A stretch of 64,000 nucleotides of DNA from Candidatus Poribacteria bacterium (GTDB taxonomy: Bacteria > Poribacteria > WGA-4E > WGA-3G): contig OZ243938.1 of NCBI GenBank assembly GCA_965214095.1, positions 1,152,001 through 1,216,000 of the forward strand. The letters are read 5' to 3'. The notes under the pieces were generated by a model. It saw only the letters and a program-made list of their open reading frames with translations, ran no database searches and was not told the DNA's origin. Positions 1,351 through 39,107 of this stretch are shown here, in pieces (the stretch's first letter is position 1; each line of letters begins with the position of its first letter). Position numbers and translations under genes: made by a program.

Positions 1351-4005
1351 TTATAAATGGTTCTCAATAATTTTGGTAGTAGCTGCAATTGCATCGTTGA
1401 CTTTATTTATGTCTTTTCCTCCACCTTGTGCCAATTCAGGACGACCACCACCGCGTCCATCTGCAATTTTTGTAATCTCCTGTATCAATTTACCAGCATT
1501 CAAGCCACGTTCTTTTACAAGATCAGATGTAACGCCAACGATAAAGGCTGCATCTTTTCCTAATACCGAAGCAAGCGCGACAACACCAGATTCCAATCGT
1601 GTTTTGAGTGTGTCTACCATCTGTCTGAGACTGTCTCTATCGGTTTTTTCTATACACGCCGCAACGACCTTGACACCATCAACAAGTGTTGCACCATCAA
1701 CTAATGAACCAATGTTTGAGAGTGCACTCTGGCTTTTCAACTTTTGTATTTCTTGTTCCAATTCACGCTGCTCTTGAAGTAATTGTTGTATTCTTTCTGA
1801 TAAACCGGATTTTGGTGTTTTTAGTATATTTGAGACATCGGATAGAATTATATCATCATCTTGGATAGTTGTGAGCGCATCACTTCCCGTAAATGCTTCA
1901 ACACGTCGGACACCTGCTGCAATACTGCTCTCACTGATCAATTTAACGTAACCGAGTTCACCTGTAGCATAGACGTGTGTGCCACCGCATAACTCAATAC
2001 TATATCCTCCTGCTTGCACTACCCTAACCATATCACCATATTTATCACCAAAGAACGCTAACGCGCCTTTTTCTTTTGCCTTATCCAGCGACATCTCGTT
2101 GATCTCAATTGTGTCGTTTTTTCGTACCTTCTCGTTAATGTAAGTCTCTATCTCCTGGAGTTGTTCCGTTGATACGGCTTCAAAGTGATTAAAATCAAAT
2201 CGTAATCTGCCAGACTGAACAAGCGATCCTGCTTGTGCTACGTGTGTGCCTAAGATACTTCTTAATCCACTGTGAAGCAGATGCGTAGCAGTATGACTTA
2301 CAGCAATTGCATTACGTCTATCACTATCAATTTGTGCTTTGACATTGGTAAATGGCGTAATTTCGCCTTCAAGAACTTTACATTTATGCACAAATAGATC
2401 TGGTGAAGGTTTGATTGTGTCAAGCACTGTGAGTTTTGCGTCAGAACTCTCAAGTAAGCCTATATCTCCAACCTGTCCACCTGATTCACCATAGAATGGT
2501 GTGTGTCTAAGCAGAACTGATACCTCATCATCTTGTTTTGCGCGTGCTACAGATTCAGAACCAGAAATCAATGTAACGATCTCTGTATCAATCATATAGT
2601 CAGTATATCCGACAAATCCTGTGCTACCCGTTTCTTTCAGCACTTCAGCATATAGTGAAACTTCATCGTCATTTACGCCGCTACCCGCAGCTTGCCATGC
2701 TGCTCTACCCCGTTCACGTTGTGCAGACATATTCTCGTCAAACCCAACTTCATCAACGGTGAAACCGCGTTCTCGTGTAAGCAGTTGTGTCAAATCAAGT
2801 GGAAAACCGAAAGTATCGTATAATTCAAAAGCACGTTTGCCATCAAGTTCAGTTTTACCTTCTGTATTTAGCGTACCAATAGACTGTTCAAGGATGTCTA
2901 ATCCACGTGCAAGCGTTTGATGAAAACGATTCTCCTCTGCTTGAATTGTGCGTGTAATAAAATCCTTTCGTGGTAATACGTCTGTGAAAACATCACCGAG
3001 TAAATCAATAACTTTATCAACGAGTCGGTATATGAATGGTTCATTCATATCCAGTTTTTTGCCATAGAGCACTGCGCGGCGTAAAATTCTACGTATCACG
3101 TATCCGCGTCCATCATTAGATGGCATGACTCCGTCACCGATTGTGAATGTCAAACAACGGATATGGTCTGCAATTACTCTATGTGGAAGTCCATCAATGT
3201 CATGACCGTAGTCCTTACCTGTCATATCAGAGATTGTTTCAAGTAGTGGAATAAATAAATCTGTTTTATAGTTAGAGTCAACGCCTTGTAGAATAGAAGT
3301 TATTCTTTCAAAACCCATGCCGGTGTCTACATGTGTAGCAGGGAGTGGGTCAAGCGTACCGTTCTGATCTCGATTATATTGAATAAAGACAAGATTCCAA
3401 AATTCACGAAATCGTTCGCTTGTATTGGGACCAGCATCAGGGTCATTTGCAGTTTCAGGGAACGCGTCTACGCCTAAATCAACAAATAGTTCACTACACG
3501 GCCCACAGGGACCGGTCTCACCCATTTCCCAGAAGTTATCCTTATCACATCGACGAATGCGTTCAAGCGGTAGATCAGTTTCCTGTAGCCAAAGCTTTTC
3601 TGCTTCGTCATCTTCAGTATACACAGTTGCCCAAAGCACTTCTGATGGAATTTTCCACAACTCTGTAACTAATTCCCATGCAAAAGCAATGGCTTCCTGT
3701 TTATAGTAATCCCCAAAAGACCAGTTTCCGAGCATCTCAAAAAAAGTGTGATGACTTGGCGAGTGTCCTACCTCTTCAAGGTCATTGTGTTTGCCACTAA
3801 CCCGTAAACATTTTTGTGTGTCTACAGCACGTTTAAATTCTCGTTGTCCAATACCAAGGAATACATCCTTGAATTGGTTCATTCCTGCATTCGTAAACAA
3901 TAAAGTTGGGTCATCGGCGGGAATTAAAGAGGCACTTGGAACGACTGTATGTCCCTTTGTTTTGAAATATTCTAAGAAACTTGCTCTGATTTCATCTGAT
4001 GTCAT
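1351..4005 (-). CDS. alaS: Alanine--tRNA ligase
   Basis: DPTLLFTNAGMNQFK, HHTFFEMLGNWSFGDY, HTATHLLH, ELCGGTH, GGGRPELAQGGG; start moved to ATG 4005 with GGGAGA RBS. Confidence 0.97.
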   Translation of the reverse strand: MTSDEIRASFLEYFKTKGHTVVPSASLIPADDPTLLFTNAGMNQFKDVFLGIGQREFKRAVDTQKCLRVSGKHNDLEEVGHSPSHHTFFEMLGNWSFGDYYKQEAIAFAWELVTELWKIPSEVLWATVYTEDDEAEKLWLQETDLPLERIRRCDKDNFWEMGETGPCGPCSELFVDLGVDAFPETANDPDAGPNTSERFREFWNLVFIQYNRDQNGTLDPLPATHVDTGMGFERITSILQGVDSNYKTDLFIPLLETISDMTGKDYGHDIDGLPHRVIADHIRCLTFTIGDGVMPSNDGRGYVIRRILRRAVLYGKKLDMNEPFIYRLVDKVIDLLGDVFTDVLPRKDFITRTIQAEENRFHQTLARGLDILEQSIGTLNTEGKTELDGKRAFELYDTFGFPLDLTQLLTRERGFTVDEVGFDENMSAQRERGRAAWQAAGSGVNDDEVSLYAEVLKETGSTGFVGYTDYMIDTEIVTLISGSESVARAKQDDEVSVLLRHTPFYGESGGQVGDIGLLESSDAKLTVLDTIKPSPDLFVHKCKVLEGEITPFTNVKAQIDSDRRNAIAVSHTATHLLHSGLRSILGTHVAQAGSLVQSGRLRFDFNHFEAVSTEQLQEIETYINEKVRKNDTIEINEMSLDKAKEKGALAFFGDKYGDMVRVVQAGGYSIELCGGTHVYATGELGYVKLISESSIAAGVRRVEAFTGSDALTTIQDDDIILSDVSNILKTPKSGLSERIQQLLQEQRELEQEIQKLKSQSALSNIGSLVDGATLVDGVKVVAACIEKTDRDSLRQMVDTLKTRLESGVVALASVLGKDAAFIVGVTSDLVKERGLNAGKLIQEITKIADGRGGGRPELAQGGGKDINKVNDAIAATTKIIENHL

Positions 4006-5470: not shown

Positions 5471-5822
5471 TTGTAACCTCCTAATGAATTATATCCGAAT
5501 TATAACATACATCCATCAAAATTACAACTATAGACGTTTTAAAGGCAGAGGCATTCAATTGTCGATATTCGTTGTGTCCATTCATAATATATAAGATATA
5601 GCATGACTTCTCATGCTATATCTGCTGGACTTTACCTCAAAGTTTATATTAGATTTTGCTCATGTCAAGAATGAGCGCGGACAGGAATTAAACCCATGTG
5701 GTTATTGTCTTCATTAAAGCAATAGCACTTAAATTATACATGAGCCAATCCGTTTTATGTGTCGTATTGCCTCATAACGTGAATTTGAGATAAGAAATCA
5801 GTTCTATCAACTGAAACCTTTG

Positions 5823-7598
5823 TCACTCTATAAAAATAAAGTCTGTGATTTCACCCGTAACAACGTACTCGTCGAGTATGAGTGTTTCTTCAACTTCTTC
5901 AAAAGTGTTATTACTGTCCAGCGTCAGTTTGATTGTTCCAGGTGCAGGTATTTCATCTTGCCGTGCGTCAATAAGCGCGTCTAGTGTTTGGGGGAGTTTT
6001 TCATCTTCAGCGTCGAAATCAAAATCAAAATCGAAGTCAAATTCAAGATCAAACAAATCAGCAGTTTCGGCTTCTACTTTCAGTGATACACCACCCGTTC
6101 CAAAATCGGATGGGACAAGAATCGATATGTCTTTTTCAAACGTCCGTTCATCTTCTTCGGCAATACTCCAATGCGGTAATAGCACGACCGTGAACGTCAC
6201 CCGTGTTCCCGTTTGAATGCCATCCGGCACCTTGACTTCTATAATCTCAGCTGACGCTATCTGCGGTTTGTCCATTATTTCAATAGATACCGACTTCAAA
6301 GTCGCCTTTCCCGCAGCATTTTTCAGCGGGTCTGTGAACTCGTTCACAGCGTAATTGAGATTTTCATAAATATCAAAAAACGGGTCGTTTGTAATATTTC
6401 GCCACCTTTGCGTGTAGGTTTTCTTCGTTTCCATAAACGATAGAATTATTTTTCCTTCTGATGTAGCACGCGTCCACTCTTGCCGGAGCGAGTCTGTTGA
6501 TGACGCAACAATAGGCGCAATTGCCCATTCTTGACCATAAGCGACTTTAGTTGTTGTCTTTATCGGTTTATCGCTATTGACCGGGTGATAAGATACATCA
6601 ACCGGTATCGTGTCTGGTGCTGCACCAAGTTCTCCGACAACCGCGGCACTCAAATCCTTCGTGAGTGTGCCAATCGGATCGCCATACGCAATTACAGATT
6701 TATAGGGATTTTGTAAGTTTGCAACAATACCTGCCGTCGTTGCCCGATAGACTGGTATTGAAATCTTGCCATCGTATCGAAGTGAATGCCCAAACGCCAC
6801 AAACGTGTCATCGGAATACACTTGTGTTACCGTGCCGTAAGCAATAACATCTACAACATCGCCTATAGCGATAGCAACGCCTATCATGTCACCAGCTTCT
6901 AAATTACCTGAAGCAGCAGGTGCGTTTGCAGGCGCACCCCCAATATCCGAAACGAAATCAATCGCATCAAATCGTGATGACTTCAGACGCTTGCGAATGT
7001 CTTCAATGCGACGCGGGTTTATACCACTGAAAACCAACGGTGTTTTGACAGCCTGCTGGCGCATCTGTACACCCGGTGCTCCTGGAGCCGCCATAAACTC
7101 ACCTAACGGAAGGTGATCTCGCGCAGCTTCCATTGCATCAATCGCAGTTGCCCAAAAACGATGCGGAGCTGTACCGAAATTCACACCATACGCCAACGCT
7201 CCCATCACGCGACCCGGCGGACCCACAGGACTGCCAGACATACCCGAAGCAATGCCACCGAGTTCTTCTATGATCGGGTCCGTCAACTCAAACTCATAGA
7301 GCGGAAAACCTAAATTAAAATCGCGTATCCCAAGATATTTTACTTTGATTGACACTTTATCTGTTCCATCAAGAACAGTGATAAGTTGATGCTCACTATT
7401 CAACGTTAAACCACGAGCTTCCGACTCATACATGCCCGTCAGAGACACTTCCGACAATATCGGTAATCCCGATTTACCCGAATCCGAACTCATATCATCC
7501 ACGACTTCTTCCGGCAGAGGCTCCGGTGCTTCATCGGAACCACAACCGAATTGAAATATGACAAAAATAACACTCAATAAACAAAGTATATGTTTCAT
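5823..7598 (-). CDS. SpoIVB-like peptidase S55 domain lipoprotein
   Basis: Lipobox-like FGC; GGIASGMSGSPV serine motif; GALAYG; GTVT...FVAFGH. Confidence 0.8.
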   Translation of the reverse strand: MKHILCLLSVIFVIFQFGCGSDEAPEPLPEEVVDDMSSDSGKSGLPILSEVSLTGMYESEARGLTLNSEHQLITVLDGTDKVSIKVKYLGIRDFNLGFPLYEFELTDPIIEELGGIASGMSGSPVGPPGRVMGALAYGVNFGTAPHRFWATAIDAMEAARDHLPLGEFMAAPGAPGVQMRQQAVKTPLVFSGINPRRIEDIRKRLKSSRFDAIDFVSDIGGAPANAPAASGNLEAGDMIGVAIAIGDVVDVIAYGTVTQVYSDDTFVAFGHSLRYDGKISIPVYRATTAGIVANLQNPYKSVIAYGDPIGTLTKDLSAAVVGELGAAPDTIPVDVSYHPVNSDKPIKTTTKVAYGQEWAIAPIVASSTDSLRQEWTRATSEGKIILSFMETKKTYTQRWRNITNDPFFDIYENLNYAVNEFTDPLKNAAGKATLKSVSIEIMDKPQIASAEIIEVKVPDGIQTGTRVTFTVVLLPHWSIAEEDERTFEKDISILVPSDFGTGGVSLKVEAETADLFDLEFDFDFDFDFDAEDEKLPQTLDALIDARQDEIPAPGTIKLTLDSNNTFEEVEETLILDEYVVTGEITDFIFIE

Positions 7599-7636
7599 AA
7601 CAAATCTCCTTTTTAAATAAATATGAACTTGTTGCT

Positions 7637-7960
7637 TTAGTTAATCAAAAAGCGTAAAACCCCATCTCTCACAATCAGTATATTCGGTTCGTAAACACCG
7701 TCTCCATCCTCATTGAAAGAGAACTGACCTAAAATCGTATCATGGGTTTTGGATACGCGCCAGTGTGTCTCGTATGGACTGTGCGTCCGTATTTTCAGCT
7801 CTTTAATGCCTCAGAAACACATGGACACACGTATAAGTGACAGCGGCAAACGCGTTGGGTTCTGTGCCGTAAGTCTTTTGATACTGTGCGACACACTCAC
7901 GATTGCCGCTGGTTTCATCTGTTGGCAACCATCCCGTGAAAGTGATTGCCCTCAGCAGCA
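7637..7960 (-). pseudogene. Frameshifted 3' fragment of a LivK-type ABC substrate-binding protein gene
   Basis: Manual translation: ITFTGWLPTDETSGNRECVAQYQKTYGTEPNAFAAVTY / TDAQSIRDTLARIQN / DTILGQFSFNEDGDGVYEPNILIVRDG, in shifting frames with no 5' half. Confidence 0.65.
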
Positions 7961-7994
7961 GTGCAGAAGCATTTAATTATCGATATTCTTTATC

Positions 7995-8020
7995 GTAGGA
8001 GGGGTTTCCAACCCTGATTT
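7995..8020 (+). repeat. GTAG-type REP hairpin
   Basis: GTAGGAGGGGTTTCCAACCCTGATTT; related degenerate copy near 61046-61071. Confidence 0.45.
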
Positions 8021-8064
8021 AACAACAAAATCAGTCGGCCTCGTGCAATTCACGCACCTATTTT

Positions 8065-8300
8065 AACCTAAGTTGCGACCTAATCAATATGTATGTTTAA
8101 TCTCACAAATATAATATTAAGACATATATATAATATCTTATAAAATAATATATTATGGTCTTAATATGAGTAATTATACACAAATTCAACAAATTTGTCA
8201 CATTTAATCTGTTTATGATTTCAAATTAACCATAATCCACATGATGCTTAAGCAAAGTGGTATCTGGACATCAATGATCTTTTAGGTAGCAACTTGGGTT
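8065..8300. mobile_element. MITE-like element (family D)
   Basis: 19-bp TIRs AACC(T/C)AAGTTGC(G/T)ACCTAA with 2 mismatches, ATTTT on both sides, AT-rich noncoding interior. Confidence 0.55.
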
Positions 8301-8375
8301 ATTTTATCCTTTGGAAATGTTTTATTTCACTTTAGGATAAGAAAACTCGACAATTGAATGCCTCTGATTTTAAAG

Positions 8376-8504
8376 GGATGTGTAAAGTTTTGGCATCAAC
8401 CGCATAATTCGTGGTAGGTGTGAACTCCGATTCCCCACTTGTCACAATTCGGAGATCGCTCATACAAGTTTTTGATCATATTGCGCCAAGAACTTTGCAC
8501 ACTC
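8376..8504. repeat. MITE-like shell (family A, degenerate) enclosing an inverted REP doublet
   Basis: GGATGTGTAAAGTTTTGGCA...GCCAAGAACTTTGCACACTC around GTAGGTGTGAACTCCGATT / ATTCGGAGATCGCTCATAC. Confidence 0.55.
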
Positions 8505-8532
8505 AGCGTTAACAAAGTATGATTTGTTCTCG

Positions 8533-11193
8533 TCACTGGCTATAACTATTTGTATGTTCATGTATTTGTTGGCGTTCGCGGTTGGCATGAGGATCTGCCC
8601 GACGTGCTATACCTGTAATCTCATCAACCGATTCATCAGTCTTGAAACGCAAGTAAAGTTTTCTTGACTTGTTTGCCATAGGTGTATTCTTCAATGCACG
8701 ATAACATCGCATCATATTATAGTGAGCATCCAAATCTTCTGGATCGACCTCAATCGTTTTCTGAAAATGTGTTAATGCCGTTTCATACTCACGTTTGAGA
8801 AAGTACATGCCTCCCAGTTGATTGCGAACGCGAGTATCTCGTGGGAATTGTGATGCTGCTTGTTGTAGATGTTGAATTGCCAAATCGTATTTTCCATACG
8901 TCTCTTGTACCAAAGCATAGAAATAATGAACCTTTGCCCGATGAGGATTTCCGGGAGGCAAGATTTTCTGTATCTCAAATGCTCTGTTCAGCATCTCTTC
9001 TGCACTCTTCACGTCACCTTCTTTGATGTTACACCGTGCAATATTCACCCATCCATCCAAGTAACCAGGATCAATTTCTGTAACCTTCCTGAATGCAGCT
9101 TGTGCTTTTCTTAAGTCTCCTTGTAGGAATAGTCCTATACCGTAGTCGTTCCAACGTTCACGAGCATTACCATCCAATGTATCATTAAATGATACATTTT
9201 CTAAATTAGATTTGACATGTAAGGTTGTTCTTACATCTGCCATCATAACAATTGGTAGGTTTGGTATGGACTTGATTTCTCCTGCAACATCAGCAGTATC
9301 ACCAGTCCAAACCCATTTTCCATCGTCATAGCCTTTATCCACCTGATAGTTCGTATCTTCAGGATCGCGAACCCCCGCATAAGCCCACTGTGTATGCCAC
9401 CAGTTGAATTTGCGATAATTGAGTTTTGCTTCTAATGCCAGAGTATCGCCACAATCATCTGGAATAGTGAGCTTGTATCTCACCGTATCTGCGGCACCAG
9501 GTGGAATGGTGCGGGAATACAATACGGTTCGCATTGCCCACGCATTGCGTTTGTTAATTAAGTTACCGCGCTCATCTAACATATAGGCTTGATAGAAGTG
9601 TGCACTCGGATCAACAGGACCATTGCCATCAGGAGCAGCGATCCTACCATTCCAAAACACAATTTTACCATTCTCATCAGTTACCTTCAACTCAAGCCAG
9701 ATATCAAATGCATCAATTGTGCCAGCGGGGAATTGATGTCCAACCCCGCGCGTCCGAACTACAACCTCAATTAACGTGTCCTCTCCTCGTTGGATTGCTG
9801 CACCATTCTTTGGAACAGGTTTTCCATTAGCAAACAGATCTAACGTGATAACATCATTTTTTAAGAAGTCTATTACTGTTTGGAGTTGTTCATCGTGTTT
9901 ATTAACATAAGGGAGTGCAGTATTCGCTGCAGGAAAACGATGACTGTGGACTTTACCCTTTATATTCCCCGCATCTTTTGAGTCAACAAGTGGCATGTGG
10001 CAATCAACACATTTCTTAGCCTTTTCAGGATAATAGAATGAGAGCGCTCCTTGATGTGAAACACCACTCTTCTGCCATTGATCGTAGTCGTTGAAACCAC
10101 GCACCCATTTGAAATTGTTGACCGGAAAGTCAAGATGTACCTTGTGACAAGTTGAACAGAATTCTGCTGTATTATCTCGGTGGAAAGGCTTTAGAAAACT
10201 CTTGCGATGTGGTTCTGGATCAAGCCGAATTAAGTAGTTGTGCAATCCGCGGATAATGCTATTGTCACTTGATGCTAAATCATGTAGAGGAGGATACTTT
10301 ATCACATACCCACTATTTCCCATCGTATCCTTGACTCGTTCAATGGAATGGCAAGCCGTGCATGCTAATCCTGCTTGTGCGGCAGGTGTATGAAGGTTTT
10401 CTCTAATCGGTTTGTCCATAATTCCATTAAGTAGAATAGCGGGATCATGACATCCACCGCACCATTTCGAAGACTGTATACCGTTCACCTCCTGCATATA
10501 GATGATGGATTTGCGGTACCACTGGTTGTTGAAAGATGAAAAATGATGAGCAGATTCGTTCCACTGCTTATAGATATCCGGATGACAACCTTTTGTTGCA
10601 CATGTTTCGGATGTCAGAAAAAAATCAGTCGGAATGAGGTTACCTGTCTCTGTTTCTACAGATGCTGGAAAAAAATGTCCTGTCGTTCCACCACCTTCTT
10701 CATACATACTTGTCGGAGGGAAAGCAGGATTCTTGACAATATAATCCGCGTTAGGAAAATAGTGTTGCGAAACCTTAGCACCTATTGGAAAGAACAGCAC
10801 AAAAATAAAAACCCCAACAATCATCTTTTTTAGAATTGGTGAAATTGTGTCACTGAACTTCAATAGATGGATTGAAAAGAGCAGACTCCCAATGCTTACG
10901 CTGACTATATGTGTAATGAGAACCCAACGGTAAGGAGTTGTCGCACCGACTACCATCAGATAACCACCAGAGATGATTCCAATGATTACTCCTAAGACTC
11001 CGAATTTACCTATACCTGTCAGTTTTCTGAGATGTTTATAAAGATAGATACAGAATGGGATCAGTAGAATAATTCCGAGACCAATATGGAGAAGTACATT
11101 TAAAATATAGAAAAGTGTGGGTTCACCGAAACTGAATAGATATGCACTGTTTAGGAGTAGAATTAGGAAGGCTAATAGTGAAATTTTACGCAT
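8533..11193 (-). CDS. Membrane-anchored multiheme cytochrome c with C-terminal TPR repeats
   Basis: About 5 N-terminal TM helices; CGGCH, CTACH, CSTCH, CVDCH plus atypical CATKGCH; TPR-like helices at the C-terminus. Confidence 0.85.
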   Translation of the reverse strand: MRKISLLAFLILLLNSAYLFSFGEPTLFYILNVLLHIGLGIILLIPFCIYLYKHLRKLTGIGKFGVLGVIIGIISGGYLMVVGATTPYRWVLITHIVSVSIGSLLFSIHLLKFSDTISPILKKMIVGVFIFVLFFPIGAKVSQHYFPNADYIVKNPAFPPTSMYEEGGGTTGHFFPASVETETGNLIPTDFFLTSETCATKGCHPDIYKQWNESAHHFSSFNNQWYRKSIIYMQEVNGIQSSKWCGGCHDPAILLNGIMDKPIRENLHTPAAQAGLACTACHSIERVKDTMGNSGYVIKYPPLHDLASSDNSIIRGLHNYLIRLDPEPHRKSFLKPFHRDNTAEFCSTCHKVHLDFPVNNFKWVRGFNDYDQWQKSGVSHQGALSFYYPEKAKKCVDCHMPLVDSKDAGNIKGKVHSHRFPAANTALPYVNKHDEQLQTVIDFLKNDVITLDLFANGKPVPKNGAAIQRGEDTLIEVVVRTRGVGHQFPAGTIDAFDIWLELKVTDENGKIVFWNGRIAAPDGNGPVDPSAHFYQAYMLDERGNLINKRNAWAMRTVLYSRTIPPGAADTVRYKLTIPDDCGDTLALEAKLNYRKFNWWHTQWAYAGVRDPEDTNYQVDKGYDDGKWVWTGDTADVAGEIKSIPNLPIVMMADVRTTLHVKSNLENVSFNDTLDGNARERWNDYGIGLFLQGDLRKAQAAFRKVTEIDPGYLDGWVNIARCNIKEGDVKSAEEMLNRAFEIQKILPPGNPHRAKVHYFYALVQETYGKYDLAIQHLQQAASQFPRDTRVRNQLGGMYFLKREYETALTHFQKTIEVDPEDLDAHYNMMRCYRALKNTPMANKSRKLYLRFKTDESVDEITGIARRADPHANRERQQIHEHTNSYSQ

Positions 11194-38750: not shown

Positions 38751-39107
38751 GGGTGTGTAAAGTTTTTGGCAAAATGGACACAGACATCCTGTAGGAGGGA
38801 TCTCCGAATCGCGAACTGTCGGGAATCGGATGCCCGCCTGCAAGTAGGCATTGGTCAGAAAACAGCAATTATTCAACGATTGAATACCTCTGCGTATGTC
38901 ATGAATGTTTGCATTAATTGCATTAATTTCTATTATATTTTGGATTTATTTATGAAAAAACCTTCGCGAAAAAATAGAGTTAGATTCAGTCATAATAAGA
39001 GATTATCAATGAGCTGGGTGTACTTCTGAGACTGAAAGAATGTGGGGCACGGAGACTCCGCAAGACAATGGTTGGTGAGAACTTAGTGCCAAAAACTTTA
39101 CACACCC
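38751..39107. mobile_element. Intact MITE (family A)
   Basis: Perfect 21-bp TIRs GGGTGTGTAAAGTTTTTGGCA; 9-bp direct repeat AATAATTAG at 38742-38750 and 39108-39116. Confidence 0.8.

Follow-up and report, generated by a model that had tools for sequence, protein, structure and literature searches.

The window analyzed here, a 64,000-nt stretch (G000:C1:1152001-1216000) of the 5.2-Mb, 41% GC genome G000, whose host is an uncultivated, probably sponge-associated bacterium, holds between thuA and a gene for a multihaem/TPR protein a unit of 2,821 bp (window 5546-8366) that ends on both sides in the same 20-bp terminal inverted repeat (TIR) and carries an intact gene. We consider it likely that this unit is a non-autonomous composite resembling a mobile insertion cassette (MIC), which was moved by a transposase acting in trans and is now stranded. 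Its components and immediate borders are the following:

5536-5545, no strand: left copy of the target-site duplication, GTTTTAAAGG, agreeing at 9/10 positions with 8367-8376; duplications of the family measure 9-10 bp.
5546-5657, plus strand: truncated left end of an ISAs1-family insertion sequence (IS) with a perfect 20-bp left inverted repeat (IRL) at 5546-5565; 92.9% identity over 112 nt to IS positions 1-109.
5658-5822, no strand: unique non-coding cargo downstream of the S55-like gene, with no other match in the genome or the fetched loci; a metagenome contig of run X1 is continuous over 5545-6362.
5823-7598, minus strand: intact gene for a 591-aa S55-like (SpoIVB-type) putative lipoprotein, recognized by its open reading frame (ORF), its translation and weak Pfam/NCBIfam S55 matches.
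7637-7963, minus strand: 3′ fragment of a LivK-type substrate-binding gene, a pseudogene cut on its 5′ side at the following element, with an in-frame TAA at 7803-7805 and one frameshift.
7964-8366, plus strand: complete miniature inverted-repeat transposable element (MITE) of the same IS family, 403 bp, identified by alignment to a 162-bp MITE; degenerate IRL at 7964-7983 (3 mismatches), perfect right inverted repeat (IRR) at 8347-8366.
8059-8299, no strand: AT-rich 241-bp MITE of another (third) family, nested in the 403-bp MITE; it has terminal repeats of its own and is flanked by a 7-bp duplication, TATTTTA.
8367-8376, no strand: right copy of the target-site duplication, ATTTTAAAGG, from the in-register comparison with 5536-5545.

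In agreement with the first-pass annotation of this stretch, which had described a perfect 20-bp TIR pair 2.8 kb apart, the repeat CAGAGGCATTCAATTGTCGA is present in perfect copies at 5546-5565 (+) and 8347-8366 (−), and with up to three mismatches it matches four times in the window, where 0.02 matches are expected from shuffles. A third, left-type end with 3/20 mismatches lies at 7964-7983; besides it, the interior of the unit contains no TIR-like site with fewer than six mismatches. The outer flanks, which had been called duplication-like over 9-10 bp, agree in register at nine of ten positions, and a family that makes duplications of just this length bears that description out: at least nine matches were found in 130 of 2,000,000 random pairs of window 10-mers (~6.5e-5 by chance). 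Neither the ORF list nor a tblastn search with the 401-aa transposase of the family revealed a transposase gene between the outer TIRs, as had likewise been noted, and only a 59-aa fragment turned up elsewhere in the genome, at C1:3406435-3406611.

An autonomous IS with the same ends, which the first-pass annotation had proposed to look for, exists in two sister species (three copies in G021, seven in G051), but none is intact in G000. The copies measure 1,299-1,346 bp, mostly 1,329 or 1,332 bp, and end in the 20-bp TIR, perfect or with one mismatch; their 401-aa ORF matches the NCBIfam ISAs1 model NF033564 at 207.7 bits (cut-off 70) as well as Pfam DDE_Tnp_1_assoc and DDE_Tnp_1. The TIR is present in 37 of the 40 genomes of the genus (the reversed control gave 0 matches), with end counts that peak at 198 in G016 and amount to 106 in G005, and the ends of the unit belong to a real, recently active IS. 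According to ISfinder, ISAs1-family elements duplicate 8-10 bp. End pairs were listed in full for G021, G051, G001 and G005, four of the 37 TIR-bearing genomes: among the 22 pairs of G021 and G051, 12 carry perfect 10-bp and three perfect 9-bp duplications, one agrees at 9/10 and six have none, which leaves 16/22 with duplications of 9-10 bp. Judged as an ISAs1-family derivative, the unit shows both a 20/20 TIR in common with the autonomous IS and a duplication of family length. The partner IS of G021 and G051 is akin to ISAs1-family elements in its length of 1.33 kb, in a TIR beginning with CAG and in its 9-10-bp duplications; in contrast, the element in the window has no transposase and carries cargo. 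Within the left arm, aligned to the 1,329-bp IS of G021 (L059, L062), the IS match ends 17 nt ahead of the transposase start codon of the intact IS. Apart from this 112-bp stump, the IS remains in G000 consist of a 178-bp internal fragment (C1:3406435-3406612), and the tblastn search detected no intact family IS there. G021 also contains internally deleted derivatives of the IS; the 715-bp derivative is flanked by a 10-bp duplication, the 631-bp derivative by none.

The right arm is of a different origin. A 162-bp MITE at C1:3409473-3409634, whose ends have one mismatch each and whose 9-bp duplication ATGAAATTA is perfect, aligns to window 7964-8065 (90%) and again to 8300-8368 (94%), so that 7964-8366 constitutes one complete MITE enlarged by the 241-bp insert; the right 68 nt of this MITE recur with 100% identity in MITE copies of G051. 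Insert-free copies are represented by metagenome contigs of runs X2 and X6 that join 8058 to 8300 with seven shared letters, and the end sequence of the insert has 17 matches in the genome. What the first pass had called a nested MITE is in fact two elements, the full 403-bp MITE, which supplies the right TIR, and the 241-bp MITE inside it, and the repetitive extragenic palindrome reported inside the unit appears to be the GGAGGGGTTTCCAACCCC hairpin of the MITE body. On these alignments, the left and right ends of the unit evidently derive from different elements, a truncated IS and a MITE, and since both arms have the same orientation, IS stump and MITE form a proper IRL...IRR pair, in which the IRR of the 403-bp MITE acts as right end of the composite.

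It had been held against a single element that the two repeats could be the ends of two independent short MITEs. Two different elements are indeed involved, but neither has a duplication of its own (the flanks of the inner MITE at 7964-8366 agree at 3/10 positions only), whereas the outer pair shares one. A rival reading states that IS and MITE inserted independently in the vicinity of resident or rearranged DNA, that deletions and a nearby inversion produced the present order, and that the unit never transposed as a whole. We regard such a static scar as unlikely, since it needs the 9/10 agreement of the outer flanks to have arisen by chance, even though the behavior of the family lends it some plausibility: truncated solo ends are common (C1:1616271 in G000; L078-L081), 6/22 family pairs lack duplications, and exchange of IS flanks by recombination occurs. 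The last of these was observed in G021, where L059 (G021:C1:138513-139841) and L064 (G021:C1:2268809-2270154), both among the six pairs without duplication, show a reciprocal exchange of flanks, in which each left flank is the reverse complement of the other left flank and the same holds for the right flanks; this indicates an inversion of ~2.1 Mb through recombination of inverted IS copies. In G005, solo ends at most 5 kb from a MITE served as controls in two places: two of the three intact MITE pairs have their own duplication, one has none. The two G005 candidates for cargo between a solo end and a MITE were rejected as independent insertions. Likewise rejected as a second cargo element was the 2,800-bp TIR pair L058 of G051 (G051:C6:96469-99268), an IS copy with a nested UPF0236-type IS; a 439-aa UPF0236-type transposase gene, which we take to be of the ISLre2 family, is nested in the ISAs1-family copies L058 and L063.

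The passenger DNA between IS stump and MITE measures 2.3 kb. Its main gene had been annotated as that of an S55 peptidase lipoprotein: the 591-aa ORF is intact, but the S55 assignment stays below the Pfam and NCBIfam thresholds, with PF05580 matching residues 105-137 only (E 4.6e-4; 20.7 bits versus a cut-off of 25) and TIGR02860 reaching 15.6 bits versus a cut-off of 305. The motif GMSGSP, at residues ~119-124, is the sole part of the protein that matches SpoIVB/S55 models, itself below threshold. As a lead only, all 30 nearest ESM-Atlas clusters carry Peptidase_S55 (PF05580), and the nearest clusters are commonest in Candidatus Poribacteria. A hydrophobic leader ends at Cys19, and the lipobox is non-canonical. 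The ORF is under purifying selection, with dN/dS values of 0.17-0.19 against three orthologues. For its composition, the 50-52% GC given earlier does not hold over the whole gene, which has 45.5% GC and 39.0% at third codon positions (GC3); this puts it at the 94th and 90th percentiles of 828 long ORFs (41.6±2.7% and 33.5±4.4%). The orthologues in G014, G017 and G053 have 46.5-47.1% GC in loci of ~43% (measured for G014 and G017); because they are equally shifted in their own genomes, the shift belongs to the gene family and composition is uninformative on the donor, which removes the ground for the GC-richer donor that had been suspected. A consensus scan returned two pattern matches. One is a 13-bp hairpin with a T-rich tail, located downstream of the S55-like gene within the IS stump; the other is an 11/12 sigma-70-like site in the nested MITE that points toward this gene.

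Directly upstream of the S55-like gene and in the same orientation follows the LivK-type fragment, which was correctly described as 5′-truncated and frameshifted and which carries the in-frame TAA in addition. It shares 56-67% amino acid similarity with a LivK-like gene in L007; NCBIfam provides no family for its 53-aa LivK piece, and tblastx with the fragment found nothing else in G000. In L007 (G004:C12), at ~3369-3695, the LivK-like gene faces a paralogue of the S55-like gene (47%) in convergent orientation. A looser LivK/S55 neighborhood may be recurrent in the genus. Pack-MULEs, with which the unit had been compared on account of the gene cut midway, acquire fragments inside Mutator TIRs, probably during repair. 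The unit shares with them the status of a non-autonomous TIR element holding host gene material, including a gene fragment. In contrast to Pack-MULEs, however, the fragment border is an ordinary MITE insertion (7963/7964), and the unit holds one gene in full within a composite architecture: the position of the LivK cut at the MITE insertion point argues for the logic of a composite transposon and against gap-repair capture.

Comparison with related genomes shows the passenger DNA to be foreign to this locus. Upstream of thuA, 37 congeners share homology with the window only as far as 5527 or a position close to it, and at none of the 29 relatives' loci examined are thuA and the multihaem/TPR gene found within 1.5 kb of each other. 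The first-pass annotation had asked whether the S55 gene sits here in relatives that lack the TIRs; none of the 39 congeners has an S55-like gene at this locus. Orthologues (73-74% amino acid identity; 76% nucleotide identity over 5823-7618 only) occur in three of the 39 (G014, G017, G053); the rest of the 159 genomes of the order have none. In these three the gene resides at another locus, between unrelated genes and with no TIRs nearby, and in G014 and G017 a divergent 244-aa gene lies upstream of it; metagenome contig L082 holds one 73% orthologue, the only one from the metagenome scan, in a third context. By the multihaem protein, the closest relatives of G000 are G051 (93%), G021 (92%), G005 and G001 (both 90%) and G044 (87%), and G014, G017 and G053 are distant (83%). 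None of the five closest relatives has an S55 protein match at E 1e-180 or better, and the best matches in G021, G005 and G001 are paralogues of at most 49% identity; a static scar would leave the absence of the cargo from these five unexplained. The S55 identity of 73% falls within the 64-86% range of neighboring G000/G017 orthologues and consequently gives no sign of a recent transfer from the G014/G017/G053 clade. The donor may be unsampled, or the gene may have been lost repeatedly. No intact LivK-S55 arrangement that could represent the donor locus was found, and in the search for an ancestral S55 locus of the G000 clade, none of the five closest relatives proved to have the two genes that border S55 in G017 next to each other.

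Metagenome runs, for which portions lacking coverage in X1-X3 were not counted as evidence, offer a further view of the unit. One X1 contig spans 5545-6362, across the junction of IS stump and cargo, at ~98% identity and with 31 letters that differ from the window on the left side of the TIR, and a second X1 contig spans 7584-8356, across the junction of the LivK fragment and the MITE. Together, these contigs are the strongest hint that the unit may have moved as a whole: both internal junctions are kept in X1 while the left flank differs, which a static scar does not explain. They also bear on the integrity of the sequence. A mis-joining of the contig at repeated TIRs deserves mention in view of the repeat nature of TIR and MITE and of short-read contigs of relatives that end at TIRs (G016, G018), but the independent X1 contigs confirm both internal junctions, a 4,825-nt X6 contig covers 4800-8344 without difference, others cover 8330-9300 (X6 may be source data), and C1 is a contig of 5.2 Mb; the probability of such an artefact is close to negligible. 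Runs X6-X9 hold the whole stretch and are probably source data, hence not independent support. In X2, a 3.2-kb contig matches 5753-7799 only (~98%) and continues into other sequence on both sides, without stump or MITE at its borders, and the thuA contig of this run has 93% identity and diverges at 5527. The S55 segments of X2 and X3 are 98% identical, in runs whose thuA contigs are only ~93% identical.

This last discrepancy, which hints at exchange between lineages, would also suit a replacement of alleles, in which a simple resident element at GTTTTAAAGG had its interior swapped for the stump-S55-LivK fragment-MITE segment by homologous recombination in the end sequences, so that an old duplication would be retained. 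Against this stands the shortness of the recombination tracts (IS-type and MITE-type right ends share ~21 nt, and the left stump offers 112 nt), and the resident element itself would have needed an IS-type left and a MITE-type right end. We therefore hold this course of events to be improbable, more so than the static scar.

The favored reading, a MIC-like composite mobilized in trans, can be put into an order of events that we infer as follows: At the donor locus, a MITE would have inserted into the LivK gene and an IS copy downstream of the S55 gene. The IS copy would then have lost its transposase gene together with its inner end. An intact IS copy elsewhere could have supplied transposase in trans, which used the outermost IRL and IRR, and the unit would have inserted upstream of thuA with the 10-bp staggered cut of the family. 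Later, G000 would have lost every intact IS copy. Because G000 is without an intact transposase, the cassette is stranded, and in this genome it is probably a fossil.

The surroundings of the insertion site are themselves rearranged, and another repeat lies directly at the right border:

8375-8504, no strand: MITE-2, a neighboring unrelated MITE with terminal repeat GGGTGTGTAAAGTT..., a multi-copy repeat that is outside the element but defines its target site.

In G021, G051 and G001, thuA adjoins an orthologue of C1:579188-580894, and a block orthologous to C1:581158-590391 comes after the multihaem gene in G051, G021, G005, G001 and G044. From these swaps of neighbors we deduce that G000, compared with the genomes closest to it, carries an inversion of ~580 kb (C1:581 kb to 1,157 kb). 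Its right junction falls between the MITE-2 copy and the stop of the multihaem gene at 8533, that is, at window ~8505-8532. The left junction (C1:580894-581158) contains an element of 59 bp that lacks a duplication and whose degenerate ends are similar to those of this IS family; an inversion by recombination between two copies of the composite was rejected, as the flanks there do not pair with those in the window. The terminal repeat of the MITE-2 family, GGGTGTGTAAAGTTCTTGGC, has 65 end matches with up to three mismatches in G000. Upstream of thuA in G021, G051, G005 and G044, a MITE-2-type end stands 16-17 nt after ATTACAA, and if the composite and one copy of the duplication are removed in silico from the window, thuA is likewise followed by a MITE-2 end after 16 nt. 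Since the MITE-2 end has kept its distance to thuA, the breakpoint lies beyond the insertion site as seen from thuA, and the insertion was apparently an event separate from the inversion. In G000, G021, G051, G005 and G044 the MITE-2 ends lie at the same distance with differing interiors (L087-L091), which may reflect a hot spot or, alternatively, an element that changes rapidly. At the same spot, G001 has a 60-bp element with ends like those of the IS family. A sigma-70-like site for thuA at 5499-5527 (−), composed of TTGTAA, a 17-nt spacer and TATAAT with an upstream TG, ends exactly at 5527, where homology stops, and the variable MITE-rich zone accordingly starts at the putative −35 box.

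Several of these findings weigh against transposition of the unit as a whole. The duplication around the 2.8-kb unit is imperfect at 9/10, and the missing duplication of the inner MITE is not decisive alone because 6/22 family pairs have none. G000 holds no transposase able to move the unit, and the 40 genomes of the genus yielded no further complete copy of the composite. The X1 contigs do not reach the right flank of the unit, and chimeric joins at repeats can occur in metagenome contigs; the X2 contig, moreover, suggests that the S55 gene changes context by other routes too. Finally, the insertion site coincides with a MITE hot spot, the G000-specific ~580-kb inversion has a junction ~170 bp away, and local rearrangement is therefore a live alternative that keeps the static scar in play.

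If the composite did move as a unit, it either is, or very recently was, possibly a working shuttle of the S55-like gene between lineages of uncultivated sponge-associated bacteria. We put this forward only tentatively and consider it rather doubtful; it is suggested by the stump-cargo-MITE unit at different sites of the chromosome in natural populations (X1) and by a 98% identical gene in hosts with ~93% identical flanking housekeeping DNA (X2, X3). Were it true, it would be a rare and directly traceable case of gene flow driven by IS and MITE in unculturable symbionts.

With regard to known systems, MIC231, an IS231-derived element of the Bacillus cereus group, is an example of a MIC. The comparison with MICs, already drawn in the first pass together with the non-autonomous nature of the element, finds backing in the family-typical ends, the duplication and DNA foreign to the locus: the unit has no transposase between its inverted repeats and a passenger coding sequence unrelated to transposition, and it thereby corresponds to the structural definition of a MIC (PMC3129680). 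It differs from MICs and MIC231 in that its ends are asymmetrical, an IS stump and a whole MITE, and not a pair from one deleted IS; moreover, it belongs to the ISAs1 family and not to IS4/IS231, its mobility is deduced, and its host is uncultivated and probably Poribacteria-like. Tn3-derived miniature elements without transposase (TIMEs) were shown experimentally to mobilize DNA between two ends with arbitrary cores (PMC4133298), and the unit resembles the composite non-autonomous transposons which such miniature elements build; those have Tn3-family ends and 5-6-bp duplications and reside on Pseudomonas plasmids, whereas here the ends are of the ISAs1 family, the duplication measures 10 bp and the unit resides in the chromosome, with a complete miniature element at one end only. 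In compound transposons such as Tn5 and Tn10, the passenger genes lie between two modules derived from IS, and transposition makes use of the outer ends (PMC10969869). By analogy, the inner end of the unit is degenerate (3/20 mismatches, 7964-7983), which would favor the outer ends; unlike in Tn5 and Tn10, neither flanking module encodes a transposase, and the left one is a 112-bp stump. The classification as a true compound transposon was rejected on this account, the stump having no inner end and only the right module being complete. A search of literature titles, with subscription journals outside its reach, returned nothing on ISAs1-derived MITEs or on MITEs in Poribacteria.

The principle behind MICs and MITE-driven composites is already established, and the value of the present unit lies in a well-resolved case and in a handle on symbiont gene flow. 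It would be a natural example of how a whole gene is made portable by a decayed IS end, a neighboring MITE of the same family and transposase from elsewhere. Beyond the unit, the analysis documents active ISAs1-family IS and MITEs across a genus of uncultivated bacteria (37/40 genomes, ~200 ends in one of them) and ties elements of this family to gene relocation and large inversions.

Two observations concern other parts of the genome. An 8-copy repeat of ~234-346 bp, found at window 38873-38892 and at seven further positions on C1 (934011 and 1724139 among them), holds a TIR-like 20-mer, CAGAGGTATTCAATCGTTGA, internally, 34 nt from a terminus of the MITE-2 family; the repeat appears to be a chimaera of two element families, and this family-B 20-mer, including the copy at window 38873-38892, was rejected as an element end because it is internal to the longer repeat. 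Contig C2 of G000 (32,066 bp) has 64.1% GC compared to 41.1% for the chromosome and may be contamination or a foreign replicon.

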